This document shows, one piece after another, positions 49,891-63,179 of a stretch of 64,000 nucleotides of DNA. Position 1 is the stretch's first letter; each line of letters begins with the position of its first letter. A program made the translations under genes and the position numbers. Below the pieces are notes generated by a model. That model saw only the letters and a list, made by a program, of their open reading frames with translations. It was not told the DNA's origin and did no database searches. This stretch comes from a phage. The stretch lies in sequence record PZ445451.1; one strand, written 5' to 3'.

Positions 49891-50103
49891 TATTTTGAAA
49901 ATTTTTATTTTTATAAAAAGGGGTGTGGGTTTCATGTACGGAAATTCACCCTCTGCACAGTATATCCAGAGTAAGTAGTATTCTACACCCTGTTAATAAA
50001 GTATTTAATTTGTTTGTTGGACTATGGTATCTGATCTTTAAAAGGCATACTATCTCTTAACTACTACTTATAACAAAACAGTAAAATCATTTTTATAAAA
50101 AGG

Positions 50104-50310
50104 ACAAAATTATTTAAAGTTTTTACAGATTTTTGGATACAAATTTTGAAAATGAAAAGTTCAAGTTTGGTCAAAATTATTTAAAGTTTTTGTACGTATT
50201 TCTATCCAGATTTTGAAAATGAAAACTTCAATTTTTTAAAAATTCCCCAGTTTATTTAAAGTTTTTTTGCCTTTTTCCGTAGAAAAATCAAAAATGAAAA
50301 GTTCAATTTC
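50104..50310. repeat. Three AT-rich tandem repeat units of about 65-80 bp
   Basis: Each unit has TATTTAAAGTTTTT (50112, 50177, 50253) and TTTTGAAAATGAAAA(G/C)TTCAA (50144, 50211, about 50290); the latter holds the inverted pair TTGAA...TTCAA. Confidence 0.6.
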
Positions 50311-50326: not shown

Positions 50327-50445
50327 GCGTATGATAATCATTCTCATTTGTAAATGAGAATCATTATCATTTAATTATGTAAGTGATAATCATTCTCAGT
50401 AAGAGAATGAGAATCATTAGCAAATGAGAATTTTTCTCATTTAGA
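50327..50445. promoter_or_regulatory. Cluster of Fur-box-like palindromes
   Basis: GTATGATAATCATTCTCATTT-GTA-AATGAGAATCATTATC near-perfect palindrome; GATAATCATTCTCA...GAGAATGAGAATCATTA; AATGAGAA-TTT-TTCTCATT; 13-15 of 19 identity to GATAATGATAATCATTATC. Confidence 0.45.
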
Positions 50446-50703
50446 GAATAACGCGCAGGGGCGGTGTTTGTCTCGCGCTCCCGTGTCCCCTCGCCATACA
50501 ATAAGAATAGCATAACCAACAACAAAAGCAAGCGATTATTTTTATCTTTACATTTCTTTACAAATTTATTTTAGACGAGCTACCGGCGATCAACCTTCCA
50601 ACCAGTGCCCCCTGGTATGTTAGCCCCGCCTTTACGCCGTGGGGGTGGCGTTTCCTCTTCTGTATGTAAAACAGTATAAGCCCGATCCCTGGGCTTGTCA
50701 AGA

Positions 50704-50970
50704 TTATTTTTTGTTTTCTTGCCAGGAAAGGACACCTAACCAAAAATACATATCGCCCCGCGCCCCTGGCGGGATCTTGCTTTCCCCGCCGCCACTGCAA
50801 GCCCATAAATAACCATCAGCGAACGGATCAAAATGTTCTATCTCTTCCACCTTATGATCGCCCAGGTTGAGAACGGTTTCAATCTTTAAGCCCGTTGCGC
50901 TTGCTACCTGGTGCACCGTGCCGCCTTGCCAGCCCAATGAGTGCATGAGATGTAAAGGAGTATTTGTCAT
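50704..50970 (-). CDS. Hypothetical protein inside GC-rich island (possible moron)
   Basis: 88 aa minus-strand ORF with RBS-like AAAGAAAGGG; surrounding 0.6 kb is visibly more GC-rich than flanks. Confidence 0.4.
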   Translation of the reverse strand: MTNTPLHLMHSLGWQGGTVHQVASATGLKIETVLNLGDHKVEEIEHFDPFADGYLWACSGGGESKIPPGARGDMYFWLGVLSWQENKK

Positions 50971-51078
50971 GGTATCGCCCTTTCTTTGATGTGCGCCCTG
51001 GTTGGCGCGGTAGAAAGATAATAGCCGTTTCCTTTATAGATAGCAAGCAAAAAAGAAATGAAAAAAGATTAAAAATGG

Positions 51079-51107
51079 TTGACGTTACCAGGATAATAAC
51101 ATATTAT
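51079..51107 (+). promoter_or_regulatory. sigma70-like promoter TTGACG-17-TATTAT
   Basis: Good -35/-10 match with 17 bp spacer upstream of the early gene array. Confidence 0.45.
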
Positions 51108-51234
51108 TCATCTTGTCGAGGGGGGCAAGGCACAACGACAATAAATAAAAGGCGGGTGCAATGCAGGACGGGCAAAGGTGAGGATCTCCATAATCCACCG
51201 TCACAATAACATTACTTATAAAAGGTTGATAACG

Positions 51235-51330
51235 ATGATCAAGAAAGAAAACAGCTTGACGGTTGGAACGATTAACGCTATCATTCTAGCCGTTCCATTT
51301 TGGATTGTAGTAGCGGTTGTTATTTTCTAA
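51235..51330 (+). CDS. Small hydrophobic peptide (31 aa), not in ORF track
   Basis: MIKKENSLTVGTINAIILAVPFWIVVAVVIF, one transmembrane helix. Confidence 0.35.
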   Translation: MIKKENSLTVGTINAIILAVPFWIVVAVVIF

Positions 51331-51339
51331 AAAATATTC

Positions 51340-51395
51340 TTGACAACGTTTTTTAATCTGATAAGATGTATCACATAGGGCGGCAATAGTGCCGC
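51340..51395 (+). promoter_or_regulatory. Promoter plus 5' stem-loop unit (PeSL-like)
   Basis: TTGACA 51340-51345, 16 bp spacer, TAAGAT, then CACATAGGGCGGCAATAGTGCCGC hairpin at predicted transcript 5' end. Confidence 0.65.
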
Positions 51396-51419
51396 TCATA
51401 ACAGAAGAGAGAAATAATC

Positions 51420-51692
51420 ATGGCATCATATAGCGCATCAATGATCGTAACGGGCATGACTGGTAAACCTATGCGCGGTGGCGGATCTTTCGCTAACATC
51501 AATATTGATGGGCGTTTATCCCTGGATGCAGCGATCACCGTGGCACGGGAAACATTTAAAAAAGAATGTAATTTCAATAAACAAGATTATCTCGGCTTCG
51601 TTATTGAAAAAACAGCGCGCTTTGTTGATTATAAAAGCCCGAAAATGATCGACACTACACTAAAAGCGCAAGATGTAGCATTTTTGCTTTAA
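51420..51692 (+). CDS. Early protein, unknown function
   Basis: 90 aa ORF downstream of PeSL unit with A/G-rich RBS. Confidence 0.55.
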   Translation: MASYSASMIVTGMTGKPMRGGGSFANINIDGRLSLDAAITVARETFKKECNFNKQDYLGFVIEKTARFVDYKSPKMIDTTLKAQDVAFLL

Positions 51693-51695
51693 GGC

Positions 51696-51755
51696 TTGAC
51701 ACTGAAAAATAATTTAGTAATATATACCACATAGGGCGGGAAATGGTTTCCCGCC
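51696..51755 (+). promoter_or_regulatory. Promoter plus 5' stem-loop unit (PeSL-like)
   Basis: TTGACA 51696-51701, 16 bp, TAATAT, then CACATAGGGCGGGAAATGGTTTCCCGCC hairpin 51735-51755. Confidence 0.7.
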
Positions 51756-51777
51756 AAATCAAAGAAAGGGTAACACA

Positions 51778-52140
51778 ATGAGCAAGCAAATCAATACTAT
51801 CATGTTAAACCTGGTATCTTTCCGCGATGACGTGAAAAATCTTTCGCGTGATGCAGTGGATGCACGGATCGAAAGCTATCGCACACAGATCGCAACATTA
51901 CCGTTAAAACGTGATCAACATGCCGCTAATATGATGCTTGGTGCTATGATTAAAAAGATGATTCAGTGTGATCTTACCCTGGCTTATGAATATGCTGGCG
52001 ATCTCTTTGTAACGTATAATAAGCCCGTTCCAGGTATGAGCACCACGGAAGAATTGCATGCCTTAAATTTGCGACAAGATGCATGGGATAACATGCGCCG
52101 TGTTATGGTATGGGCCGAAAGCGGTAAAATTTACGAATAA
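51778..52140 (+). CDS. Early protein, unknown function
   Basis: 120 aa ORF, RBS AAAGAAAGGG. Confidence 0.55.
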   Translation: MSKQINTIMLNLVSFRDDVKNLSRDAVDARIESYRTQIATLPLKRDQHAANMMLGAMIKKMIQCDLTLAYEYAGDLFVTYNKPVPGMSTTEELHALNLRQDAWDNMRRVMVWAESGKIYE

Positions 52141-52146
52141 AAACGG

Positions 52147-52200
52147 TTGACATTGCACTAAAACCTGATAAGCTATCTTAAAGCGGGAATTGTTCCCGCT
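52147..52200 (+). promoter_or_regulatory. Promoter plus 5' stem-loop unit (PeSL-like)
   Basis: TTGACA 52147-52152, TAAGCT -10, hairpin AGCGGGAA-TTG-TTCCCGCT 52182-52200. Confidence 0.6.
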
Positions 52201-52218
52201 TACATAGGATAAAACTTT

Positions 52219-52365
52219 ATGAAACAATATGTAATGAGTATCCACACCAAAAACGGCGCTACTGTTACGACTCCGGCACGGTTTGCACTTGTAAACCGTT
52301 GCAAGAGACTAAAACGAGAGTTAAAAAATAACCGTGCAACGGGCTTTAAACGCTGGGGAGGATAA
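52219..52365 (+). CDS. Small basic ORF (48 aa), not in ORF track
   Basis: MKQYVMSIHTKNGATVTT...RWGG; its last codons contain GGAGG 6 nt before the TTG start of the next ORF. Confidence 0.4.
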   Translation: MKQYVMSIHTKNGATVTTPARFALVNRCKRLKRELKNNRATGFKRWGG

Positions 52366-52367
52366 TC

Positions 52368-52628
52368 TTGTTTTTTCTAAAAGTTTGTGATAATGTGATC
52401 GCTTTTGAACATGCTACAACGTTCGACCTGGCGAGATACGCTATCAGGTTTAAAGATAATGTTTATCCCCGTGCTGGCGGCGGTTACACTATTTTTAATC
52501 ACCGTAACGCTCAATTAACGGATATAACTAATCCAGATCCTGGAGTGTATCGGATAGGCTGGCTACCGTCAAAAGACGCTGCAAGCATGTTTAAGGTGTG
52601 TAAACTACTAACAGAAGAGGCGAACTAA
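52368..52628 (+). CDS. Early protein, TTG start, translationally coupled
   Basis: 86 aa frame with no in-frame ATG near 5' end; GGAGG 6 nt upstream of TTG. Confidence 0.45.
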   Translation: MFFLKVCDNVIAFEHATTFDLARYAIRFKDNVYPRAGGGYTIFNHRNAQLTDITNPDPGVYRIGWLPSKDAASMFKVCKLLTEEAN

Positions 52629-52629
52629 C

Positions 52630-53184
52630 ATGGGGCGTGAATATGTGATCCAGTCCTGGGTAAAGCATGATGCTAATGATCCGCGCATAATACCAGATGA
52701 CATGATCGATCACATGGTAGGGTATAGCGGGGAGCAGATAGGAAATCGAGCGGCAAAGAGCAACGGCAACACCAGGACGCGATCCGTTCGTCCTGGATGG
52801 CTGGCGAATGGTAACGCTGACATTGCAAGCGCCGCAGATCCAAGCGATGACGCTAAAAATAATCCCTTGTACAGCATTGATCCGGCTTTTAAGGTGTTGG
52901 AAGAGTATCCCGCTAAATTAGCCGCACTAGATAAGGCATACGAAGAAAAGCGCATGGCCTGGACTGTATACAACACCGCTAAAATGGTGCTAGATGCAAA
53001 ACTAATTAAAGCCCAGGAGAAGATCAATAAACTTGTTACCATAGCGCAAGAGGAAGACCAGGGCGACCAGGAGGAAGAGGAAGAAATCATGCCTACCCTG
53101 GAAGAGGAAGAGATCCAGCCATACATGCCGACAGAAGAGGAAAAAAGACAAGCCCTAAAAAATTATGAAAATTGCATTGTGTAA
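52630..53184 (+). CDS. Early protein with strongly acidic C-terminal tail
   Basis: 184 aa; EEDQGDQEEEEEIMPTLEEEEIQPYMPTEEE tail; ATG overlaps previous stop. Confidence 0.55.
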   Translation: MGREYVIQSWVKHDANDPRIIPDDMIDHMVGYSGEQIGNRAAKSNGNTRTRSVRPGWLANGNADIASAADPSDDAKNNPLYSIDPAFKVLEEYPAKLAALDKAYEEKRMAWTVYNTAKMVLDAKLIKAQEKINKLVTIAQEEDQGDQEEEEEIMPTLEEEEIQPYMPTEEEKRQALKNYENCIV

Positions 53185-53187
53185 GGC

Positions 53188-53243
53188 TTGACATATGCAA
53201 ACAAGCCCCGTAATATGTACCACATAAAGCGGGGCAACGCCCC
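53188..53243 (+). promoter_or_regulatory. Promoter plus short stem-loop
   Basis: TTGACA 53188-53193, 17 bp, TAATAT, then GGGGC-AAC-GCCCC hairpin. Confidence 0.5.
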
Positions 53244-53265
53244 ATAAGGTGAAATAAAAAATCAC

Positions 53266-53293
53266 TTGACACCTGAAATCAGTAAGCTATAAT
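53266..53293 (+). promoter_or_regulatory. Consensus sigma70 promoter TTGACA-16-TATAAT
   Basis: Perfect -35 and -10 hexamers with 16 bp spacer; no following hairpin. Confidence 0.65.
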
Positions 53294-53330
53294 GCTTATA
53301 TAGATTGAAACATTACTAAGGAATAAAAGC

Positions 53331-53510
53331 ATGGCTATTATTGCAAAGACTGAGATCGTAGGTTTAGATTCTATCATCCTGGCATATGAGGAAGCTATAG
53401 AAATGTATGTGGTTTCCTATGGTGATTATATCCGTGAATATAAATCTATTGATCTAGCTTTTGAATGCTATATTCGCCAGGTCAATAAAGCATATGATGA
53501 TTATCGTTAA
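53331..53510 (+). CDS. Small ORF (59 aa), not in ORF track
   Basis: ATG after GGAATAAAAGC; downstream of consensus promoter. Confidence 0.4.
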   Translation: MAIIAKTEIVGLDSIILAYEEAIEMYVVSYGDYIREYKSIDLAFECYIRQVNKAYDDYR

Positions 53511-53529
53511 AAGTTTTAGTCTTGTGCTA

Positions 53530-53558
53530 TTGACAACGAACGATAGTACAAGCATAAT
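53530..53558 (+). promoter_or_regulatory. sigma70-like promoter TTGACA-17-CATAAT
   Basis: Good -35, acceptable -10; no clear hairpin. Confidence 0.5.
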
Positions 53559-53605
53559 AACTTTTATCGGGAATACTCCTAACTAATCAAAAGAGATTAA
53601 AGACT

Positions 53606-53971
53606 ATGGCTAAAAATATCAATGTTTCTGCTTATGCTACCCTGGCTAACACTGCTAAAATTGAACTATCCAGCATTGAAGCGGTACATATTAGCGCCCG
53701 TCGCTGGTTTCAAAAGTCTTATGGTAATACTTATTTCTCTTTGATGGTTGACGTTGAGATCGGCGGTAAACTGATCGAAGTAGTTAACGTTCCGTTTCAA
53801 TATGGTTATGGGGATCATTTTGATACCGTTGCCCTAGAAGAGTTTAGCAAGGTTATCAACCTGGAAGGTAAAGAGTTTTCAAATTATGCTTACCTTTCCC
53901 GCTTTTGCCGTGATAATGGGATCGCTGTATACAGTCATGCAAGCGATGTAAAACGTAAAAAAGATTTATAA
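53606..53971 (+). CDS. Early protein, unknown function
   Basis: 121 aa ORF, RBS AAAGAG. Confidence 0.55.
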   Translation: MAKNINVSAYATLANTAKIELSSIEAVHISARRWFQKSYGNTYFSLMVDVEIGGKLIEVVNVPFQYGYGDHFDTVALEEFSKVINLEGKEFSNYAYLSRFCRDNGIAVYSHASDVKRKKDL

Positions 53972-53977
53972 AAAGCA

Positions 53978-54035
53978 TTGACAGCACGAATAAAAAGCAT
54001 ATAATACTTATATCGAGAGCGGGAATAGTTCCCGC
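53978..54035 (+). promoter_or_regulatory. Promoter plus 5' stem-loop unit (PeSL-like)
   Basis: TTGACA-16-TATAAT (53978-54005), hairpin GCGGGAA-TAG-TTCCCGC 54019-54035. Confidence 0.7.
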
Positions 54036-54059
54036 CTCACTGAAAAAGAGATTAACATC

Positions 54060-54299
54060 ATGGCTAAATCTAAAATGTACAACGGTCACAAAAATAAAAC
54101 TCATTGGAATGTAAGCCTTTGGATTAATAATGATGAATCGTTATACTTATACGCTGTAGGTTTAATAAATGAGTGCGGCAATAAAGATAAAGCGGCGGAT
54201 CTGATGTGCTACAGATTAAAACAGGATGGAATCACTCATACACCTGATGGTTTCAAGTATAGTAAAACTGCAATCCGTGCCGCTATGGTAGGAATGTAA
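54060..54299 (+). CDS. Early protein, unknown function
   Basis: 79 aa ORF downstream of PeSL unit. Confidence 0.55.
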   Translation: MAKSKMYNGHKNKTHWNVSLWINNDESLYLYAVGLINECGNKDKAADLMCYRLKQDGITHTPDGFKYSKTAIRAAMVGM

Positions 54300-54308
54300 T
54301 AAAAGCAG

Positions 54309-54368
54309 TTGACAACGTTTTTTAATCTGGTATAGTTTATCGCATAGGGCGGGAAATGGTTTCCCGCC
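54309..54368 (+). promoter_or_regulatory. Promoter plus 5' stem-loop unit (PeSL-like)
   Basis: TTGACA-16-TATAGT, hairpin GGCGGGAAA-TGG-TTTCCCGCC 54348-54368; core identical to the 51696 unit. Confidence 0.7.
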
Positions 54369-54390
54369 AAATCAAAGAAAGGTTATCATT

Positions 54391-54618
54391 ATGGCTATCG
54401 TTATTGTTCGCGTATCCGGCACGGTTGGAATCTCCCAGGTAGTAGCAGTTATCACCGAGAAGAAAGGGGATGATCTTCACTCCTCATTGAATAGCTGGGC
54501 GGTCGCTAACTTTGGGCAATGGTCGAGCGTTGAGTACATCGAATCCTACCAGGTGCCAACGATTAGCCTGACCGATCTCAACGTTGATCGTCTGTTATGC
54601 CTGGATCAATTAAACTAA
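54391..54618 (+). CDS. Early protein, unknown function
   Basis: 75 aa ORF, RBS AAAGAAAGG. Confidence 0.55.
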   Translation: MAIVIVRVSGTVGISQVVAVITEKKGDDLHSSLNSWAVANFGQWSSVEYIESYQVPTISLTDLNVDRLLCLDQLN

Positions 54619-54626
54619 AAATAATA

Positions 54627-54684
54627 TTGACAAGACAACTAAAATTAGTAAAATGTAATTCATAGGGCGGCAATAGTGCCGCCC
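54627..54684 (+). promoter_or_regulatory. Promoter plus 5' stem-loop unit (PeSL-like)
   Basis: TTGACA-16-TAAAAT, hairpin GGGCGGCA-ATAG-TGCCGCCC 54665-54684. Confidence 0.65.
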
Positions 54685-54705
54685 CTAGTAAGAGAGATTA
54701 TCAAA

Positions 54706-54921
54706 ATGGCTAATATCCGCACCTTGTTAAAAAATGCAAAGCAAGTTTTATTTTCAGATGACGAGTATTTCAACAAAGACATTACAGGCGTGAAAAATTT
54801 AAAAGACGTGAAGGATGTTATCGGTATCCGTGGATCTTTACGTAAAGGTGACATATACGGTAACAAGGTGCAATATAAACTGTCAAAAGATTATGATTTT
54901 ACTTTGACAATTATTTCATAA
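54706..54921 (+). CDS. Early protein, unknown function
   Basis: 71 aa from ATG (MANIRTLLKN); the track start lies inside the 5' hairpin. Confidence 0.5.
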   Translation: MANIRTLLKNAKQVLFSDDEYFNKDITGVKNLKDVKDVIGIRGSLRKGDIYGNKVQYKLSKDYDFTLTIIS

Positions 54922-54927
54922 AACTAC

Positions 54928-54988
54928 TTGTAAACCTGGTAAAATAAAGTAAACTATATTCATCAAGGCGGTGGAATAGCCCACCGCC
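54928..54988 (+). promoter_or_regulatory. Weaker promoter plus 5' stem-loop unit
   Basis: TTGTAA-16-TAAACT, hairpin GGCGGTGG-AATAGC-CCACCGCC 54967-54988. Confidence 0.5.
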
Positions 54989-55012
54989 TAACAAAGAGAA
55001 GAGGAAAACATC

Positions 55013-55183
55013 ATGATCACTTTCACTACCCGTGAAGCCGCTCGCAACGTTGCACGTAAAGTTAACGCCGCCAACCTGGGCGCTACGCTTAAAGCCCCGG
55101 TGAAAGATGAATCAGGAAAATGGATCTTTCCTGGTCTGCGTCACGCTGATAAGCTGGGAACATTAACGTTAAAAAATAAATAA
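55013..55183 (+). CDS. Small ORF (56 aa), not in ORF track
   Basis: MITFTTREAARNVARKVNAANLGATLKAP...; RBS AGAGAAGAGGA. Confidence 0.45.
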   Translation: MITFTTREAARNVARKVNAANLGATLKAPVKDESGKWIFPGLRHADKLGTLTLKNK

Positions 55184-55190
55184 TATCCGC

Positions 55191-55249
55191 TTGACAGTAG
55201 CATCGTTTATAAGTAAAGTAACAACAACGGCGGGAAATGGTTTCCCGCC
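55191..55249 (+). promoter_or_regulatory. Promoter plus 5' stem-loop unit (PeSL-like)
   Basis: TTGACA-17-TAAAGT, hairpin GGCGGGAAA-TGG-TTTCCCGCC 55229-55249. Confidence 0.7.
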
Positions 55250-55269
55250 ATCAATAAAGAGATAAGATT

Positions 55270-55629
55270 ATGAAATCAGTAAAAGCAATTAAAACTTACA
55301 TTGTGTCGGCTATTTCTTTTGATGGTACTACAACCGAAAAAGAAAAAATCACCGAACTGATGCGCCGTTTTAACTCTGAATACTGGTATCAATCTAATCG
55401 TGATCGTTATAATAACAATATGGTACAAGCTGTTAAAAGCTGGTTACAAGGTTTACCGTCAGATATCAATATCGCTTTTAATTATAACGAGATCGATCAA
55501 TTATTAATTGAATGGAAGTACATAAAAGAAACAAGCAAAGAAACAACCGTTACCCGTGAGCGGGAAAATTATTGGTTATATATTGCAAGCATGATCGTAA
55601 CTTTGGCAAAATATCATAACGTAGCGTAA
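55270..55629 (+). CDS. Early protein, unknown function
   Basis: 119 aa ORF, RBS AAAGAGATAAG. Confidence 0.55.
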   Translation: MKSVKAIKTYIVSAISFDGTTTEKEKITELMRRFNSEYWYQSNRDRYNNNMVQAVKSWLQGLPSDINIAFNYNEIDQLLIEWKYIKETSKETTVTRERENYWLYIASMIVTLAKYHNVA

Positions 55630-55643
55630 TCGAGAGGAAAAAC

Positions 55644-55781
55644 ATGAACGCATCACAGCAGATCGAAAAATTCAACCGCAACAAAGCGAGTAAAGATTGG
55701 AACGAAGAGATCACCAAGAAAGGCGACAAGCGGAACAAAACAAAAAGAGATCGCAGCAGCAAAAGATACTGGAACGAATAA
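55644..55781 (+). CDS. Small lysine/arginine-rich ORF (45 aa), not in ORF track
   Basis: ATG after GAGAGGAAA; followed by terminator. Confidence 0.4.
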   Translation: MNASQQIEKFNRNKASKDWNEEITKKGDKRNKTKRDRSSKRYWNE

Positions 55782-55786
55782 CAAAA

Positions 55787-55810
55787 AAGGGCGCAATAAG
55801 CGCCCTTTTA
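55787..55810 (+). terminator. Rho-independent terminator AAGGGCGC-AATAA-GCGCCCTT + TTT
   Basis: 8 bp GC stem followed by T run. Confidence 0.65.
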
Positions 55811-55899
55811 GCTTATATAGAGGCTTGTTGCTTATAGGCAAGGGTAACGCCAGGATAAGCCTATAAACCACGTTAGACGGCTTTACAGGAGCTTTAAAA

Positions 55900-56082
55900 A
55901 TGAAATTAGAGGAAATAAGCAAGGCACTAGCCCAGGGGCAAAGGTTATGCGCCCGATATCGTGATCAATATGGCTTCATAACTAGCGGCGTGATCCTGGG
56001 GATGGAAGGCAATAAGATTTTTATTGACACGTTGAAAAACGTTGTATATAGTGACAATATAATCTCAATAAAACATATATGA
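55900..56082 (+). CDS. Hypothetical small protein
   Basis: 60 aa ORF after ACAGGAG RBS. Confidence 0.45.
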   Translation: MKLEEISKALAQGQRLCARYRDQYGFITSGVILGMEGNKIFIDTLKNVVYSDNIISIKHI

Positions 56083-56492
56083 GGCAAGAAATGAAAAAAT
56101 TATTGATCGCTGGTTTACTCTCTTTTGGCATGGTTGGAACATCTAGCGCGGCGATATCCTCCACAGTAGCAGAATTAAGCGCCGTTGATGCAATGGAAAA
56201 CGTCATGATCATTAATAATGCGATCCCCGATGAAATCATGGAGGATTCACACATGATCGCTTATGGTGCTGTTACACAACTAACGGCAAAAATAGATAAA
56301 TCTATTGTTAATGGCTTAAATGAAGATGTACCATGTGAAATTATTACCAGTGTGCTCACTACTCAAAATTTTACGCCGTGGCTAAAAAGTATTCAAAAAG
56401 TACACAGTACAGCCGCAGATCGTAGCAATGAAAAACTAGTGTCAGCACTTGCAACGTATACCCTAGCAAAATGCACCGAAATAAAAGATTGA
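56079..56492 (+). CDS. Secreted/periplasmic small protein
   Basis: ATGA-coupled start; signal peptide MKKLLIAGLLSFGMVGTSSAA (second in-frame ATG at 56091 also possible). Confidence 0.55.
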   Translation: MRQEMKKLLIAGLLSFGMVGTSSAAISSTVAELSAVDAMENVMIINNAIPDEIMEDSHMIAYGAVTQLTAKIDKSIVNGLNEDVPCEIITSVLTTQNFTPWLKSIQKVHSTAADRSNEKLVSALATYTLAKCTEIKD

Positions 56493-56539
56493 CAACATAG
56501 AAAGCACGTTATAAGATACACACAACAAAGGAGAACTAC

Positions 56540-56842
56540 ATGAACGGCATAGCTAAAACGTTTTTTCTTTTTTCTGGTGTAAATGATCCATCAATAAAAG
56601 TCGATAGCGTAAAAGAAAACAATACTATCACCGCTAAATTGTTTCAAGATGAAACAAATAACGTGCTAATCATTAATCTTAAAGAAATAACAAAAGGTTA
56701 TTATACTATTGCTTACCATGCGATCTATAATGCTGGTACTAGTGAGGAAGTGCAAACAAGCAACAACGAAAGCGCGGCGCTACCTGGTGATCTGGTGCTG
56801 GGCGTTATCAGTTTAATTGTCAATGATTTTTTTAAGGAGTAA
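56540..56842 (+). CDS. Hypothetical protein
   Basis: 100 aa ORF after AAGGAG RBS. Confidence 0.5.
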   Translation: MNGIAKTFFLFSGVNDPSIKVDSVKENNTITAKLFQDETNNVLIINLKEITKGYYTIAYHAIYNAGTSEEVQTSNNESAALPGDLVLGVISLIVNDFFKE

Positions 56843-56846
56843 AACC

Positions 56847-56942
56847 ATGCCCTATTTACATTTATTTTTCGGTATCTTATTGACAGGATCTTTTTTCTTC
56901 TGTATGCTTGTTTCTATTGTAAACCACGTTTTAAAACATTAA
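56847..56942 (+). CDS. Hydrophobic micro-ORF (31 aa), not in ORF track
   Basis: MPYLHLFFGILLTGSFFFCMLVSIVNHVLKH; ATG 7 nt after AAGGAG. Confidence 0.4.
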   Translation: MPYLHLFFGILLTGSFFFCMLVSIVNHVLKH

Positions 56943-56951
56943 GGAAACAGC

Positions 56952-57071
56952 ATGAAAATTATTCCCGTACAGTATAGCGTAATAAATCCAGCATATGAGG
57001 AAGGAAGGAAAACAAGCATGGCTTTATGTTGTATTGCTACTATAGCCATGTTATTATACACTGTGTTTTAA
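56952..57071 (+). CDS. Micro-ORF with hydrophobic C-terminus (39 aa), not in ORF track
   Basis: MKIIPVQYSVINPAYEEGRKTSMALCCIATIAMLLYTVF; RBS AAGGAAAC. Confidence 0.35.
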   Translation: MKIIPVQYSVINPAYEEGRKTSMALCCIATIAMLLYTVF

Positions 57072-57100
57072 TAGGTTTTATAGTTGTACGCTTTAAAGGC

Positions 57101-57128
57101 TTGACAATTTTTTGTTATGCTTTAAAAT
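57101..57128 (+). promoter_or_regulatory. sigma70-like promoter TTGACA-16-TAAAAT
   Basis: Good -35/-10; following hairpin degenerate (CGGC-AAAG-GCCG). Confidence 0.5.
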
Positions 57129-57171
57129 ATATCTTGAAAACGGCAAAGGCCGCAAACAAAAGGGTAAAATT

Positions 57172-57495
57172 ATGAAATCTGTGATCGGTGTTTATTTGGA
57201 TAATTCTGATTTTTTCTATCATCGCGCTCGTTTCCTTGATGCTATTGATATGATAGAATCAGGCTTTAAAGAATACCGCCTTGCACATGATGACCTGGAA
57301 GCATTACAGGGCAATAGTGTTTTTACATTGCAAGCGAAAGCACTATGTAAAAGCCGGATCGACATTGCGAGCAAAAAGATAGAACGCGGCATGTCCTGGT
57401 TGCGCACCGCAGAAATCAACATGGGGCAATGGTACGGCAAAAACTTAGAAAATAAACATACCTTTGTCAATGTAGAAAATATTGAAGATTATTGA
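57172..57495 (+). CDS. Early protein, unknown function
   Basis: 107 aa from ATG (MKSVIGVYLD) after AAAGGG; track start lies upstream of the predicted transcript start. Confidence 0.5.
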   Translation: MKSVIGVYLDNSDFFYHRARFLDAIDMIESGFKEYRLAHDDLEALQGNSVFTLQAKALCKSRIDIASKKIERGMSWLRTAEINMGQWYGKNLENKHTFVNVENIEDY

Positions 57496-57557
57496 TTGAC
57501 AGCACATCTAACGAGTAGTATATTGTATCTCATAGAGCGGGGAAATGGTTTCCCCGC
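57496..57557 (+). promoter_or_regulatory. Promoter plus 5' stem-loop unit (PeSL-like)
   Basis: TTGACA-17-TATATT, hairpin GCGGGGAAA-TGG-TTTCCCCGC 57537-57557 (compensatory G:C relative to other copies). Confidence 0.7.
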
Positions 57558-57577
57558 CTTAAAAGAAGAGATAAGCT

Positions 57578-57862
57578 ATGAAGATCACAAAAGCACTTTC
57601 CAACTATGCAGCACGTCGCGGATTATGCTTATCCGTTGAAAACTTAGGGAAAGAAGATTTTTTGTGTTTTTGGGAGCTTGAAAATGAAAGTGAATGGTTG
57701 TTCTCTTATTCTATCTGCGAAGATCAAAACGGTTGTTTGTTAACCTGGCGCGGTAATATCTATCTACCGGAAGAAATCAAAGAAGAATTGCCAGGCACGA
57801 TCATGACTGAGAAACAGCTTAAGGAAGTGATTAATTTTGTAGGGCAAAACATTAAAAAATAA
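57578..57862 (+). CDS. Early protein, unknown function
   Basis: 94 aa ORF, RBS AAGAAGAGATAAG. Confidence 0.55.
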   Translation: MKITKALSNYAARRGLCLSVENLGKEDFLCFWELENESEWLFSYSICEDQNGCLLTWRGNIYLPEEIKEELPGTIMTEKQLKEVINFVGQNIKK

Positions 57863-57863
57863 T

Positions 57864-57920
57864 TTGACACTAGGCAAACAACGTAGTAAAGTTTATCACA
57901 TAGGGCGGCAATAGTGCCGC
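57864..57920 (+). promoter_or_regulatory. Promoter plus 5' stem-loop unit (PeSL-like)
   Basis: TTGACA-17-TAAAGT, hairpin GCGGCA-ATAG-TGCCGC 57905-57920; near-identical to the 51340 unit. Confidence 0.65.
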
Positions 57921-57943
57921 TCATAACAGAAGAGAAACAAATC

Positions 57944-58114
57944 ATGATCCCGACTATGTTTTATGTATCGCGCAAAGGTCACAATATTTTTTGGTCTGAA
58001 GATTTAAATGAAGCCATGACGTTTGCCCGTGATCGTGTTGCTATCGGTGGCGTTAACATTACTGTAACCGATGAAAACGGCATTGAATACTATAACGGCG
58101 ACGATGAAGAGTAA
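57944..58114 (+). CDS. Early small protein (56 aa)
   Basis: ATG (MIPTMFYVSRKG); track GTG start lies inside the 5' hairpin. Confidence 0.5.
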   Translation: MIPTMFYVSRKGHNIFWSEDLNEAMTFARDRVAIGGVNITVTDENGIEYYNGDDEE

Positions 58115-58121
58115 TTAATAA

Positions 58122-58142
58122 GGCGGGGGAGTATTCCCCGCC
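58122..58142 (+). other. PeSL-type hairpin without an upstream promoter
   Basis: GGCGGGG-GAGTATT-CCCCGCC directly after a stop codon and 20 nt before next ATG; no TTGACA/-10 upstream. Confidence 0.45.
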
Positions 58143-58161
58143 GTCAATAAAGAGGTAAATC

Positions 58162-58431
58162 ATGAAAATATCTTTGGACGTTGCAATCAAGGCCATCGAA
58201 TCCGGTTACACCCTGGTAAAAGATGATAAGGCTAAAATAGTGCATCATGTTAACAAGGAAACAGGCGAAAGCATGATCACATATAAAGCCGCCTACTTTC
58301 TCCAATCAGTAGCAGATCCGCGCGTACAACGCCAGGTTACAGCGGCTATTGCTAAAAAATTATGTGCTTTACAGGGCACAAGTTTTAACGAGATCGCCCC
58401 GTGTTTTGACTGGTCGAGCTTGAAAAAATAG
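58162..58431 (+). CDS. Early protein, unknown function
   Basis: 89 aa ORF, RBS AAAGAGG. Confidence 0.55.
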   Translation: MKISLDVAIKAIESGYTLVKDDKAKIVHHVNKETGESMITYKAAYFLQSVADPRVQRQVTAAIAKKLCALQGTSFNEIAPCFDWSSLKK

Positions 58432-58432
58432 T

Positions 58433-58494
58433 TTGACAATATGCTGTTATCTGGTAAAGTGTACGACATAGGGCGAGGCAATAAGGCAACGCCC
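58433..58494 (+). promoter_or_regulatory. Promoter plus divergent 5' stem-loop
   Basis: TTGACA-16-TAAAGT, then ATAGGGCGAGGCAATAAGGCAACGCCC imperfect hairpin. Confidence 0.5.
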
Positions 58495-58513
58495 ATTAAT
58501 GAGGGGTAGAATC

Positions 58514-58618
58514 ATGTTAGAGAAAATTTTCACGGTTGTAATAGTGGGCCTGGCGTTATCGGTTGGATTGGTTGCAACTATGGCTAACATGATCCTATCT
58601 TCCCACGGTATTGGATAA
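58514..58618 (+). CDS. Hydrophobic micro-ORF (34 aa), not in ORF track
   Basis: MLEKIFTVVIVGLALSVGLVATMANMILSSHGIG; RBS GAGGGG. Confidence 0.4.
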   Translation: MLEKIFTVVIVGLALSVGLVATMANMILSSHGIG

Positions 58619-58628
58619 GGTGAATCAA

Positions 58629-58844
58629 ATGATCACGAATAAGACAGGTAAAACAGAATTTTTACGCAGCTTGCAAATAGGTAAACCTGAGATCTGGCAT
58701 TGCACTAAATCCGCGCATAATGAAATGAAAGATTTTACCGCTACTTTACAACGTGTTAAAATATCTATCACACAGAAAAAAGCCTTGTTAGTAGTAGAAA
58801 ACGAGATCCCGCAAACCATTATTATTGTCGAGCGTACAGCATGA
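58629..58844 (+). CDS. Early small protein (71 aa)
   Basis: ATG 6 nt after AAGGTG; track TTG start less likely. Confidence 0.5.
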   Translation: MITNKTGKTEFLRSLQIGKPEIWHCTKSAHNEMKDFTATLQRVKISITQKKALLVVENEIPQTIIIVERTA

Positions 58845-59227
58845 AAACTGAAATCATTAACGAAATGATCAACGGCTATAAAGAAGCCTTTATTTTTGCC
58901 GAACCAGCGACGGATCACAATGGGGAATATATTGAGAATCTAGACGATTATGATTTTTCTCCTAGCGCCCTGAAACGTATTACCAGCGATGTGACCGCCT
59001 TTTGTAGTGCCAATGTTGCCGCTATCTCTGAGGCAATGAGCGACGGCGCTACAGCAAACCAGATCGGGAATGATTTACATTTTACCCGTAACGGTCACGG
59101 CGTAGGTTTTTGGGATCGCCCTGAAATATACACTACTAACACCGCCAACCGTTTAACTGATGCAGCTAAATTAATGCCATTGGTGCATGCTTACATTGGT
59201 GAAGATAATTTGATTTATATTGACTAA
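58841..59227 (+). CDS. Early protein, unknown function
   Basis: 128 aa ORF, ATGA-coupled to previous gene. Confidence 0.55.
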   Translation: MKTEIINEMINGYKEAFIFAEPATDHNGEYIENLDDYDFSPSALKRITSDVTAFCSANVAAISEAMSDGATANQIGNDLHFTRNGHGVGFWDRPEIYTTNTANRLTDAAKLMPLVHAYIGEDNLIYID

Positions 59228-59232
59228 AAGTG

Positions 59233-59290
59233 TTGACACCGATCCCCAATATGTTATTATTTACCACGTAAGCGGGAAATGGTTTCCCGC
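59233..59290 (+). promoter_or_regulatory. Promoter plus 5' stem-loop unit (PeSL-like)
   Basis: TTGACA-16-TATTAT, hairpin GCGGGAAA-TGG-TTTCCCGC 59272-59290. Confidence 0.7.
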
Positions 59291-59314
59291 CAGGTAATCA
59301 AAAAGGTAAATACT

Positions 59315-59704
59315 ATGCGCAACCTGGTTTCTGTTTCTAACGTTGAAAAATTTCAATCTTTACAGGGTATCGTTAACAACGTAGCGCCTTTTTTAGTCAA
59401 CGGCTTGATTGCAAAGATGAAAAATAAACATCATGCGGCATGGTCTGCTTACTGCTTTGATAATGATGAAAAAGCGGCTGAAATGATGCTAAATATGCTG
59501 TTAGACAGTGTAGAATCATCTTTACCGGAAAACATCGCAGAAGAGATCACCTATCGTTATAATATGGCGATCACTTACCAGGAGGTTGCGCAATTTAATA
59601 TGATGGACGATGACGAACAACAGGATCAGGAAATGTTTTGGGAGTATGCTGATCGTCAATCGGCTTTTGATGAAAAATTAGCGATGTATTATAACGAATA
59701 TTAA
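59315..59704 (+). CDS. Early protein with acidic segment
   Basis: 129 aa from ATG after AAAAAGG; track start lies inside promoter/hairpin. Confidence 0.55.
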   Translation: MRNLVSVSNVEKFQSLQGIVNNVAPFLVNGLIAKMKNKHHAAWSAYCFDNDEKAAEMMLNMLLDSVESSLPENIAEEITYRYNMAITYQEVAQFNMMDDDEQQDQEMFWEYADRQSAFDEKLAMYYNEY

Positions 59705-59717
59705 TACACGGTAAAAG

Positions 59718-59745
59718 AAAGGGGCGCACTAAGCGCCCTTTTTTG
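59718..59745 (+). terminator. Rho-independent terminator GGGCGC-ACTAA-GCGCCC + TTTTTT
   Basis: GC stem followed by six T. Confidence 0.65.
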
Positions 59746-60089
59746 TATTCTTTTTTCACGATGGAAACAACACGTAAAGAATAGGCGTAAAGGTGGCGTA
59801 AAACCATCTAAAACCGACTGTAACCGCTTAAACAAGGTAGGAATGATTAATCACCTTACCAGGGTGAAAAAGCTGTTATAAAGCTACCTAGAGCGTTTAA
59901 AGCACATAGGGAATAATTTGCTTTTTATCTTGCCTTTTATCCTGCTTTTGATTATTATTATGGAACGGGCGGCACCTGGGGACAGGGGAAGATAATCACC
60001 GGAAGATCCCGCTATATATTGATAGCTAATACCTATTAAACAACAAAACATCAAAGGAATAAACTATCAAATCTTTACAATCCTACCTA

Positions 60090-60150
60090 TTGACACAGGA
60101 TCACCCTTATACTAATATGTATCCCGTAGGGCGGGAAATGGTTTCCCGCT
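60090..60150 (+). promoter_or_regulatory. Promoter plus 5' stem-loop unit (PeSL-like)
   Basis: TTGACA-17-TAATAT, hairpin GCGGGAAA-TGG-TTTCCCGC 60130-60150. Confidence 0.7.
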
Positions 60151-60168
60151 TGATATAGGAATCATACC

Positions 60169-60402
60169 ATGATCGAACAAATTAAAAGCACTACACCAAA
60201 TGTTAACGGCAATGTTTCACACTTTATCGGTGATAATGAAAGGGGCACACCATACGCCGCCGTAACCGTGCAACCTAATGGCGATTATTGGTTTACCGTG
60301 TACGGATCATACTCTTTCGGACGCCCGGCACATGATAAGATCTTGCAAGCGGTTAAACCTGCGGGGAAGAATATCACAGCAGAAAAATTTTATAAAAAAT
60401 AG
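60169..60402 (+). CDS. Early protein, unknown function
   Basis: 77 aa ORF. Confidence 0.55.
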   Translation: MIEQIKSTTPNVNGNVSHFIGDNERGTPYAAVTVQPNGDYWFTVYGSYSFGRPAHDKILQAVKPAGKNITAEKFYKK

Positions 60403-60403
60403 C

Positions 60404-60432
60404 TTGCTTTATTTCTTCTGTTAACTTATAGT
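60404..60432 (+). promoter_or_regulatory. sigma70-like promoter TTGCTT-17-TATAGT
   Basis: Acceptable -35/-10; downstream GTAGGGC start conserved but hairpin degenerate. Confidence 0.4.
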
Positions 60433-60477
60433 TATCGCGTAGGGCAAACAATTTTAAACGGTAAACGAGGAATCACC

Positions 60478-60861
60478 ATGAGCAATATCATCAACCTGGC
60501 AGCGACTGTAAACGGTAAAGATTTTAACGGCGCTGTAGACCGTGATCCTATGTGGTGCTTATCAGTGTTTAAAGGCGACCTGGTTGAAGTTAGAACAACC
60601 GAAGGCTATAGCGATGATTATAAATGCGAGATCCATTTACATAACTGGTACACGGGGAAAACTTATGCGCTGAATCACGCATTTATCGGGAAAATTGAAT
60701 ATCGCGAAATGATCGACGAAGAAACGGGGCAAGATTTTAGCGATTATGTTTATATCCGTTCAGAAACATTAGCCGAACGCTTGATCGAGAAAATGAAAGC
60801 AAAAAATAAAATTAATTTAGCTCATTGGCTTGATATAACAAATGATCCGGCTTACAAGTAA
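60478..60861 (+). CDS. Early protein, unknown function
   Basis: 127 aa ORF, RBS ACGAGGAA. Confidence 0.55.
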   Translation: MSNIINLAATVNGKDFNGAVDRDPMWCLSVFKGDLVEVRTTEGYSDDYKCEIHLHNWYTGKTYALNHAFIGKIEYREMIDEETGQDFSDYVYIRSETLAERLIEKMKAKNKINLAHWLDITNDPAYK

Positions 60862-60876
60862 ATAACATTTCACACC

Positions 60877-60903
60877 AGGGCGCACAAAGCGCCCTTTCTT
60901 TTT
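60877..60903 (+). terminator. Rho-independent terminator AGGGCGC-ACAAA-GCGCCCT + TTCTTTTT
   Basis: 7 bp GC stem and T-rich tail ending the early gene array. Confidence 0.65.
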
Positions 60904-61106
60904 ACCTAAATAAAGATGATAGCTTTTACCTATCAAAAACGTTCACCGAAAAAAGTGAATAGATCGCGGTATCGAGCTAATCAAGGAGCAGATGAACAAC
61001 CATACCATGAAGATCATAAGGCGCTTACAACGTGTTTTAGACCGCTTATTTTTAATTTCTCAATGTAACTATCGGGCAAAAACAGCCTTTTTCTTGTCTT
61101 TCCTCT

Positions 61107-61182
61107 TAAATGATAATCATTCTTATTTATAGCTGATTATTTATGCAATAAACTGCATAATGCAATAATGATAATCATTCTT
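61107..61182. promoter_or_regulatory. Two Fur-box-like sites
   Basis: AAATGATAATCATTCTTA (61108-61125) and AATAATGATAATCATTCTT (61164-61182); the latter matches the Fur consensus at 16 of 19 positions. Confidence 0.45.
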
Positions 61183-61573
61183 AACTTATGACCATCTAAC
61201 CTATAAAATAATAAGTTATCTAACTAAATTAAAACTAATTATCCCACCTTTATTTATAACTTACTTTTACTATCTCATTGATAACCTTATATTAAACAAC
61301 AATAACCAATATAAATCATTACTAAGCTAACTATAATCTATCTAACCCTTAAAACTATAACTATAATCTATCGAATTGTTGCACAAAGTAACTATTAAAT
61401 TGTTAGTAACTTTACTAAATAATTAATATCCTATCTATTTATGATCTAATCTTTACCTTACTATCTATTACCTAAATAACCATTTCATACAGAAATTATT
61501 TCATACAATAACTATAACAAGAAATATAATTCGCAAGCGTATCATTAGCAGCCTATGCCGGACACATAGGCGG

Positions 61574-61719
61574 CTAATAATAACGCAACTACACACCCCA
61601 CATAATAACCATCACCGATAGTTATTATTTGTGCTTATGTAGCTTGCAACAATTGCAAGCGCAACAATATACATGGTATATTGTATCCCTTACATTGTTG
61701 CGGTGCGTTATTATTAGCT
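61574..61719. repeat. Long nested imperfect palindrome
   Basis: Outer arms GCTAATAATAACGC (61574-61587) and GCGTTATTATTAGC (61706-61719); inner CGCAACAATA / CATTGTTGCG; GCTTGCAA-CAA-TTGCAAGC at 61643-61661. Confidence 0.6.
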
Positions 61720-62045
61720 AATGTTTGGAACATTGGCTATAATATAAGCTACATATAATAAGCTATACAATAATAAACATAATGAATAATGACACTGATG
61801 ATCATAATGCGCCACCTTCCAGGGGGCGCTATGTGAACACAAAGAAATCTTTCTTGTCAAGAAAAATATCACCATTATTGCGCAAAATTATTTATATCTG
61901 AACAGATGATTTTTCATACTATTGCCCCCTATAGTATCCCTATTTGTTGTAATGTATTCCCCTATTTGTTGAGCCTACTCTCTTAAAAGCGCAATAAATT
62001 AGAATTATCTTGATTTTTAGGTAGTTTTATAGTATAGAAAATATG

Positions 62046-62064
62046 CAAATGATAATCATTATCA
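62046..62064. promoter_or_regulatory. Fur-box-like site
   Basis: GCAAATGATAATCATTATC matches GATAATGATAATCATTATC at 17 of 19 positions. Confidence 0.5.
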
Positions 62065-62240
62065 GCTATCTTCCACAGGTGGCACTATTTCACGCCAGAT
62101 CATTTCATTTGGCAAGGTGTATATAGATGTTTAGAAATGCCAAGCCATTGATTTACTTAGAATTTATCTGTTTTGTTGTGAGTAGTGCCTTTCTTGCTCA
62201 GAAAATAATCAAAAGTCTTATAAGTCATTGAATGATAATG

Positions 62241-62259
62241 CAAATGATAATTATTCTCA
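62241..62259. promoter_or_regulatory. Fur-box-like site
   Basis: GCAAATGATAATTATTCTC, 15 of 19 match; preceded by another AATGATAAT half-site at 62232-62240. Confidence 0.4.
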
Positions 62260-62380
62260 TTGATATTTGAGGGGGACGGTCGGCAGAAATCGGGGGCGCT
62301 AAAAATCGCGTTAAGCACCTCTCGCAAGCGAGCAGTATTTTGCGGCAAGTTATTGATATTATTGGCTTTACGCTTATGGA

Positions 62381-62490
62381 AAGGGGGTGTGTCGAAATAA
62401 ATCGGGTATACCGGAAAATTTTTGTGGCATAGATATTTATTTGTCTATATTATGTACAAAGGGGTGTGTTAAAAATAATAGGTATATATA
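62381..62490. repeat. Two copies of a roughly 30 bp direct repeat
   Basis: AAAGGGGGTGTGTCGAAATAAATCGGGTATA (62381-62411) and AAAGGGGTGTGTTAAAAATAATAGGTATAT (62459-62488), about 80 percent identical. Confidence 0.5.
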
Positions 62491-62717
62491 GAATAATTGA
62501 TAGGGAAATCCTATACTAATCCCTCCATTAATGATGTTCCTAGGTTGCTGTTCTTGTAACAGATGAAAAGACGCTGTATGATGTGTGGCATGAGACGTAA
62601 ATTTATAAGATGCAAATAATGCTTGCATTGAATAGAAATGTCTGTATAGTGGTTTGCATACCGCGCACGACGCGTTTCCATTTTCAATAAAATGTTAGCA
62701 TTATGGGGAGGTAGAAA

Positions 62718-63179
62718 ATGAGACAACTATCTATACTGGAAGCACATGTGCAATGTGTTGCAGATTATGTCAAAGAACACTCAAGTTTGTTGGATGTAAC
62801 CTGTGCAGTGCAAAATGATGTAGGTATTGTCTGTGTGCGACATATCTTATCTGAAACTCGTTATGAAGTATTTCGTGCCAAGTTGTTTGGATGTGATCAA
62901 GTGCATGTAAACTTCTTGGATTCCAATTTTCGTTATGCTTTAGAAAATATTGATGATTATCTTCCTTGCTCTCCGACCGGATATGTGATGATAGCAGCAA
63001 ATGAAGTAACACCAAACAACAGTGAGCGGGAAACTTTGTTACGGAAGAAAATACGCCAACTGCAAGTGTTGAATGAACTGAAAGAAGAGATTGAAAAAGA
63101 ACTGAAAGAAGATTTTGGTATGCTTCCAAAAGACGCTTTGAAATGGTTTGATGAACTAGGAGAGGAAAGTTATGAATAA
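62718..63179 (+). CDS. Hypothetical protein with C-terminal coiled coil
   Basis: 153 aa ORF after GGGGAGG RBS. Confidence 0.55.
   Translation: MRQLSILEAHVQCVADYVKEHSSLLDVTCAVQNDVGIVCVRHILSETRYEVFRAKLFGCDQVHVNFLDSNFRYALENIDDYLPCSPTGYVMIAANEVTPNNSERETLLRKKIRQLQVLNELKEEIEKELKEDFGMLPKDALKWFDELGEESYE

Follow-up and report, generated by a model that had tools for sequence, protein, structure and literature searches.

Why should a long non-coding stretch in the genome of a strictly lytic phage carry a set of close matches to the operator of Fur, a metal sensor of its host? The stretch in question, positions 60862-62717 of the DNA analysed here (the window, 64,000 nucleotides of phage sequence record PZ445451.1), is 100% identical to Escherichia phage PaulScherrer (Bas60, MZ501100.1), a phi92-like Justusliebigvirus of the Stephanstirmvirinae in whose record positions equal window positions + 32675. 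It comprises 1.86 kb with a GC content of about 0.30, and an earlier note, made from the sequence alone, had reported four Fur-like loci in this AT-rich DNA, the best of them matching 17 of 19 consensus positions. All four loci were recovered here (61106, 61164, 62045 and 62234-62264; boxes 1 to 4 in Table 1) and box 3 is indeed the 17/19 match, at 62045-62063 rather than 62046-62064, the coordinates given earlier being 1 nt too high.

The boxes and the end of the phage genome

The earlier note had placed the region 3' of a cluster of early genes. It does flank an array of small genes, yet it is not simply that, being a genome terminus with two of the boxes inside a 342-bp direct terminal repeat (DTR). 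The record of phage phi92 (FR775895.2) annotates a left and a right direct terminal repeat of 343 bp each, and both align over their full length with window positions 61972-62313, with the same boundaries. For phage BME3 a 342-bp DTR was determined by PhageTerm (PMC12210895), and the end of the BME3 record coincides with the boundary of 61972-62313. Klebsiella phage phi1_175008, from another genus, has a repeat with the same two boundaries, and several related records recovered in a distant search terminate inside 60862-62717. The comparison with termini of related phages, which the earlier note had put forward as a check, thus gave the same ends in phi92, BME3 and phi1_175008, and together these place the boxes at the physical genome end. 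Judged by these alignments, the non-coding stretch is the end of the chromosome in a PaulScherrer-type phage; MZ501100.1 itself begins at an arbitrary point and has one repeat copy. Boxes 3 and 4 lie inside the repeat, with the core of box 3 78-92 nt inside its left boundary and that of box 4 54-68 nt inside its right boundary, and boxes 1 and 2 are found about 0.8-0.85 kb upstream.

Table 1. Sequence features at the genome end and in the companion region at 50.3 kb (window coordinates; 7-1-7, single-dimer Fur unit).
Feature	Position	Strand	Details
Three direct repeats, TTATTTAAAGTTTTT...GAAAATGAAAAGTTCAA	50098..50310	+	about 63 bp; directly upstream of region A; partly kept in phAPEC8
Region A, five contiguous Fur-like palindromes and an in-phase GAGAAT hexamer	50327..50449	+	7-1-7 cores at 50332, 50355, 50384, 50408 and 50425
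Structured element downstream of region A	50450..50720	+	about 270 nt; terminator-like hairpin at 50678-50720
Box 1, TTAAATGATAATCATTCTTA	61106..61125	+	14/19 at 61106-61124; 7-1-7 core at 61111-61125, 12/14
Inverted repeat between boxes 1 and 2, TATGCAATAAACTGCATAA	61142..61160		cross-genus identity 0.91
Box 2, AATAATGATAATCATTCTTA	61164..61183	+	16/19 at 61164-61182; 7-1-7 core at 61169-61183, 12/14
Stem-loop cluster (4 or 5 conserved)	61541..61720		between boxes 1/2 and the terminal repeat; 7 compensated pairs
DTR equivalent	61972..62313		342 bp; end-to-end alignment with phi92 repeats
Box 3, GCAAATGATAATCATTATCA	62045..62064	+	17/19 at 62045-62063; perfect 7-1-7 at 62050-62064
Box 4, six-hexamer array, AATGATAATGCAAATGATAATTATTCTCATTGATATTTG	62231..62268	+	7-1-7 at 62245-62259, 13/14
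Three G-rich direct repeats, (A/G)AGGGGG..GT...AAAT..GG, GGGGGTGTGTCGAAATAAATCGG type	62269..62482 (at 62269, 62381 and 62458)	+	between the DTR and the first gene (62718)

Sites were scored against the 19-bp Fur consensus GATAATGATAATCATTATC and against the 7-1-7 unit TGATAATnATTATCA, the latter with a cut-off of 12/14 or better. Allowing three mismatches or fewer, the window holds 6 matches to the 19-mer where 0.01 were expected, and the remaining 100 kb of the genome none. The 7-1-7 unit occurs 4 times in 60862-62717 (0.05 expected in shuffles keeping the region's own dinucleotide content), 4 times in the 50.3-kb region (0.025 expected) and 10 times in the whole window (0.8 expected), with 8 of these 10 falling in two non-coding regions that total 3.2 kb, whilst the other 100 kb of the 150-kb genome yields 2 matches, which is chance level. 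DNA that is 70% A+T and holds many other repeats might still throw up such palindromes as functionless by-products, but the shuffles and the conservation of the sites across genera and subfamilies, with turnover, both speak against this, and we regard it as very improbable indeed, so that a chance origin of the boxes can in practice be set aside. In coding DNA the sole site of this kind is a 16/19 Fur-like match within an intein-containing UvrD/Rep helicase gene; it abuts a consensus DnaA box TTATCCACA on the minus strand, the two lying at 37062-37090.

Comparison with proven Fur operators

The scan was calibrated on the ent-fep operators only. Scored in this way, the footprinted E. coli operators reach 16/19 (fepD-entS) or 15/19 (fepB and entC), with fes-fepA worse, and the phage boxes, at 14-17/19 and 12-14/14, are at the level of these proven operators; box 3 and the entC box have 16 contiguous nt in common. 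Overlapping 19-mer matches 6 bp apart are found in box 4, at 62234 (14/19), 62240 (15/19) and 62246 (14/19), and in region A, as the pairs 50327/50333, 50350/50356 and 50379/50385, and it is this 6-bp offset that is the signature of real Fur clusters, for which PMC2189734 gives overlaps at 6 (or 3) bp in runs of three or more hexamers. The operator-like look that the earlier note had remarked upon is thus borne out by consensus match, by overlap architecture and by conservation. Measured against the operators of entC, fepD-entS, fepB and fhuF, the phage has the same motif with an equal or better consensus match, the same 6-bp overlaps and arrays of 30-120 bp. Unlike these operators, the phage sites lie in a terminal repeat or in long untranslated regions, with no recognisable sigma-70 promoter overlapping them, and no iron-related gene lies downstream of them.

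The closest link to measured Fur binding is provided by nohA. In the list of Chen et al., nohB and nohA are each preceded by one of the strongest Fur clusters of E. coli K-12, at 25.3 and 22.3 bits respectively; the nohA site was confirmed by Fur gel shift and by recovery in an in vivo Fur selection, and for the nohB site a Fur titration assay paper is cited (PMC2189734). In NC_000913.3 the nohA site reads TGATAATGATTATCA at 1636593-1636607 and is the same 15-mer, TGATAATCATTATCA, that forms the perfect 7-1-7 inside box 3. Its centre coincides exactly with that of the published site, 1634624 plus a 1976-nt version offset giving 1636600.

Conservation and turnover of the boxes

Conservation in related phages, also named in the earlier note as a way to check the sites, was found across genera, with turnover. 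The Phapecoctavirus sample comprised phAPEC8_ev052, ZCKP1 and TSP7_1, for which mean cross-genus identity over the region is 51%. These phages retain boxes 1, 3 and 4, and box 2 only partly, with box 1 in the form TGATAACCATTATCA (13/14) and the register of box 4 moved by one 6-nt hexamer relative to its flanks. In phi1_175008 box 3 has been lost at the aligned position, a new TGAGAATCGTTATCA is present about 25 nt downstream and box 4 is kept, whilst Klebsiella phage KpS8 (Vequintavirinae) has kept box 3 and carries additional boxes. Box 3 is the best-conserved block within the DTR, and box 4 precedes a conserved TTGATATTTG(A/G)G at a fixed position. As for region A, the array is kept in phAPEC8 with strong and weak sites exchanged; one to four palindromes stand at its position in W70, Cronobacter phage CR8 and Pectobacterium phage CB7 (all Vequintavirinae), and its last palindrome, TGA(G/T)AAT(C/T)ATTCTCAT, is invariant among the compared phages. 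Selection therefore acts on the motif and not on the sequence, since sites persist amid diverged flanks and through the hexamer shift of box 4, the relocation of box 3 and the swapping of strong and weak sites. The phages in which they persist belong to Phapecoctavirus, to an unclassified Klebsiella genus and to Vequintavirinae from four host genera.

The companion array at 50.3 kb

The earlier note had described the small genes as bracketed by Fur-like sites, and this holds, with both site groups flanking the plus-strand genes at 51.2-60.9 kb. Region A lies 11.9 kb from the right end, at 7.9% of the genome in PaulScherrer, 7.8% in phi92 and 8.7% in phi1_175008, and the segments from array to right end (window 50327-62313, phi92 136993-148612 and phi1_175008 136466-149542) measure 11.5-13 kb. 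The block between array and end holds about 31 small plus-strand genes, each of them read in the direction of the end, and a sigma-70-like promoter is present in several of the intergenic regions inspected there.

Directly after the last palindrome of region A follows the structured element at 50450-50720, which is 74-85% conserved in Stephanstirmvirinae and Vequintavirinae with Escherichia, Klebsiella, Cronobacter, Pectobacterium and Salmonella as hosts, and which in most records has no annotated feature. It ends in a hairpin and a T-run, with compensatory changes in the stem, and had no match in Rfam. From these sequence characters we regard it as a candidate non-coding RNA under a Fur-type operator. 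The 63-bp repeats upstream of region A look iteron-like, with no DnaA boxes nearby.

Matching boxes near the ends of lambda and T5

The lambda genome (NC_001416.1) has a single perfect 7-1-7, and it is the same 15-mer as in box 3. It lies at 48452-48466, at a distance of 36-50 bp from the right end, with cosQ following 7 bp further on. The region upstream of nohA, in prophage Qin, is a lambda-type cos region. The likeness of the phage boxes to the sites of nohA and nohB, which are Nu1 homologues of the cryptic lambdoid prophages Qin and DLP12, thus extends to an identical 15-nt core tens of bp from the chromosome end. Chen et al. treat the nohA and nohB sites as promoter sites, with cos and the phage genome end unmentioned (PMC2189734). 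The arrangements differ in that lambda has a single site at its cos end, PaulScherrer nine sites and a short direct terminal repeat.

In T5 (AY587007.1) the same perfect 15-mer stands at 233-247 from the left end, inside dmp. Fur-box-like, too, are the T5 features annotated as 'direct repeat C / palindromes E-I' (9468-9637), which belong to the left terminal repeat and adjoin both the 7.9% nick and the injection-stop region (iss), where first-step transfer stops; exact identity between the T5 palindromes and the PaulScherrer 50.3-kb array extends over 22 nt, or 26 nt when the T5-like phage Gostya9 is compared with phAPEC8. All BLAST-detectable matches in T5 fall within its terminal repeats, and the T5 cluster lies at 7.8-7.9% of the genome from the left end. 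The likeness therefore consists in a palindrome cluster in a non-coding, repeat-rich stretch of more than 1 kb, 7.8-7.9% from one end, together with a single perfect box near the end. As with the T5 iss, the phi92-like palindromes and repeats are clustered in long untranslated DNA, at a distance of about 8% of the genome from the end, and enclose a block of small genes. T5 differs in having a 10-kb terminal repeat and a proven two-step DNA transfer. In Davison's analysis of the T5 region palindromes and DnaA boxes are discussed and Fur never (bioRxiv 10.1101/866236); T5-type DnaA boxes are found in neither PaulScherrer region.

The right end of lambda and the left end of T5 are the ends that enter the cell first. 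This suggests, from the parallel among lambda, T5 and phi92, a possible part for the boxes in DNA entry or packaging, and would extend to a wider proposal in which the end that a coliphage chromosome sends into the cell first would be marked by Fur boxes, with a T5-like 'first-entering' module present in phi92-like and rV5-like myoviruses. Under this proposal the module would be the right-terminal 11.5-13 kb of small genes (7.8-8.7% of the genome), with Fur boxes at the very end, within the terminal repeat, the inner cluster of palindromes, repeats and hairpins would be the counterpart of the T5 injection-stop region, and Fur or another binder would act in DNA entry, pausing or end handling; alternatively the boxes would serve as a packaging-termination brake just upstream of the cut site, as the position of the lambda box relative to cosQ may indicate. 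We hold the proposal to be speculative and give it a small chance of being correct. It would not be without analogy, IHF site I1 in lambda cosB and the DnaA boxes proposed for the T5 iss being cases of a host DNA-binding protein recruited beside genome ends, but Fur, unlike IHF and DnaA, is a metal sensor, and a packaging or injection role for it is not described in the literature searched.

Matches beyond these phages were numerous. An idealised 31-nt box was found in 1104 phage records, mostly of phages of Escherichia, Salmonella, Klebsiella and Vibrio, and including T5-like Vibrio and Aeromonas phages at about 6.8-9 kb, in the terminal-repeat region; most of the listed matches have no annotated feature beneath them. 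The strict 19-nt palindrome AATGA(G/T)AATCATT(A/C)TCATT occurs in more than 120 IMG/VR viral contigs. Among the 43 contigs that were fully retrieved, 14 matches lie 350 bp or less from a contig end as against 4.5 expected, an excess to which assembly breaks at repeats could contribute. Examples are contigs L043 (28-46), L076 (9-27) and L028 (6-24), the first of which also has TAAGTCATTGA, in common with the block just upstream of box 4.

The identity of the binding protein

A phage-encoded Fur was looked for with E. coli Fur as a tblastn query in 50,697 phage records, and no match was obtained in Stephanstirmvirinae or Vequintavirinae. Matches elsewhere came mostly from short, unannotated records whose sequence resembles DNA of a host and not a phage gene. 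As a shared binder the DNA-binding protein A2 of T5 was rejected, having homologues in T5-like genomes only. Taking together match quality, 6-bp architecture, localisation, conservation, identity with the nohA site and the failure to find a phage-encoded alternative, we conclude that host Fur probably binds the phage boxes. The presence of the same palindromes in unrelated T5-like phages, and of the same 15-mer in lambda, is simply explained by a common host factor.

The boxes could instead be recognised by some other protein of genome-end biology, whether phage-encoded or from the host, acting as terminase or small-subunit recognition factor, in end pairing or in replication initiation, with the likeness to Fur incidental. 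Two boxes do stand where one would expect signals for packaging, 54-92 nt inside the DTR boundaries, the extended palindrome exceeds a Fur box in length, and the region is rich in other conserved repeats and hairpins. A terminase site, however, would not be expected to recur as a five-site array 11.9 kb from the end, nor would its motif be common to T5-like, lambda-type and phi92-like phages, which differ in terminases and in ends (long DTR, cos and short DTR respectively). The lambda-type copy is, moreover, published as bound by Fur (PMC2189734), searches for a shared binder (Fur tblastn, Pfam on the neighbours and the A2 search) found none, and DnaA boxes are absent from both regions. On balance we consider a binder other than Fur unlikely.

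Several observations nonetheless weigh against the boxes being regulatory Fur sites. The conserved palindrome, AAATGA(G/T)AAT(C/G)ATT(C/A)TCATTT, extends past the classical Fur box, such that another protein with overlapping specificity may bind it, and a site may have been transferred horizontally together with its binder, as one module, which could account for the identity with T5-like phages. In conservation the boxes fall between the 70th and the 90th percentile, and other blocks in the region are equally conserved. A sigma-70 promoter scan gave 16 promoter-like sites as against 14.7 in shuffles, none of them convincing at the boxes, and the boxes stand in long stretches of untranslated DNA and not immediately in front of genes, a location as fitting for a cis-acting DNA function as for regulation. 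Finally, fur mutants serve routinely as hosts for lambda and T5, and any dependence on Fur must accordingly be modulatory.

A proposed mechanism

The explanation that we favour, and to which we give about even chances as a whole, is that the boxes are conserved multi-dimer sites for host Fur with a local regulatory effect. Each box is a run of three to six GATAAT-type hexamers and should therefore take at least two Fur dimers, as natural operators do. The phi92-like phages hold these sites at fixed places, with one multi-hexamer site near each DTR boundary, two about 0.85 kb upstream and the five-site array. The Fe2+-loaded dimer of host Fur would bind the boxes, and in iron-replete cells Fur would occupy the terminal repeat and the two long non-coding regions flanking the right-terminal block of small genes. 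Bound Fur would repress or insulate transcripts initiated within these regions or passing through them, among them that of the structured element at 50.45-50.72 kb and those running into the first genes beyond the repeat; on iron starvation Fur would leave the sites. Every effect of Fur occupancy on the phage is one that we infer, and local iron-responsive repression or insulation is a possible reading of the function, suggested by the fixed position of the last region A palindrome before the terminated element and that of box 4 before TTGATATTTG(A/G)G. Transcript data for this phage group were not found in the literature searched.

Replicating phage DNA, with at least nine strong sites per genome, would also soak up Fur, and this could be the very purpose of the boxes, titration of Fur de-repressing host iron uptake and iron sparing and thereby feeding the iron-dependent enzymes of the phage. 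The number of multi-dimer sites, two of which (boxes 3 and 4) occur in two copies as part of the terminal repeat, makes such sequestration plausible on copy-number grounds, Fur boxes carried on a plasmid relieve the repression of fhuF in the Fur titration assay (PMC2189734), the phage has genes for ribonucleotide reductases of classes I and III, and the sites lie in non-coding DNA without obvious promoters. What sequestration does not explain is the fixed positions, since a sponge need not hold conserved positions relative to DTR boundaries and to the downstream element; lambda, moreover, has a single site, and continued host transcription late in infection would be required. We therefore judge it rather unlikely that sequestration is the function of the boxes.

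Other features of the stretch

The non-coding stretch is bordered by a gene for a widespread T4 gp30.8-like protein on one side and by a homologue of phi92 gp001, at 62718, on the other. Two small annotated open reading frames in the PaulScherrer record, bas60_0145 and bas60_0146, were rejected as genes, being unconserved; in the sister genus the ATG of one is replaced by ACG and the other has an in-frame TAG, and for these reasons 60862-62717 was taken as non-coding. A terminator is present at 60877-60895, at the end next to the T4 gp30.8-like gene, and apart from it a terminator scan gave chance level. Rfam scans of both non-coding regions gave sub-threshold eukaryotic matches only, a search of the window for tRNA and tmRNA found none, and Pfam gave nothing for the first genes after the repeat or for the minus-strand open reading frame beside the 50.3-kb array. 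DnaA boxes number 12 in the window as against 10.9 expected, with none in either non-coding region, and of features expected at a replication origin there are an AT-rich tract with short repeats at 61190-61520 and the 63-bp repeats at 50098-50310, both without DnaA boxes.

The stem-loops at 61541-61720 show compensatory changes between genera (for example GCCTATG/CATAGGC as against CGCTACG/CGTAGCG) and may act as DNA or as RNA; in the hairpin at 61604-61624 the loop has opposite orientation among close relatives (CACC as against GGTG). The G-rich repeats at 62269-62482 are partially conserved between genera and may be early promoter or leader elements.

Meaning for phage and host

The motif and its binder Fur were known already. 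Their placement, with boxes conserved within the terminal repeat of a lytic phage and matched by boxes near the lambda and T5 ends, is not described in the literature searched; a search on Fur together with phage termini, the T5 iss, cosQ or Stephanstirmvirinae gave nothing relevant beyond PMC2189734. Nor does that literature link the 15-mer 36 bp from the right end of lambda with the one 233 bp from the left end of T5. Fur boxes are the textbook operators of bacterial iron genes and, if the present reading is true, the iron status of the host would be tied to events at the ends of phage DNA. It offers a candidate answer to an old problem, namely the binding partner of the palindromes conserved at the T5 injection-stop region, and it bears on why the regions upstream of nohA and nohB, which are lambda-type cos neighbourhoods, hold some of the strongest Fur sites of E. 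coli K-12. In therapy candidates from the phi92 and rV5 groups, infection may be tuned by iron, an element in short supply both in the gut and in infected tissue.

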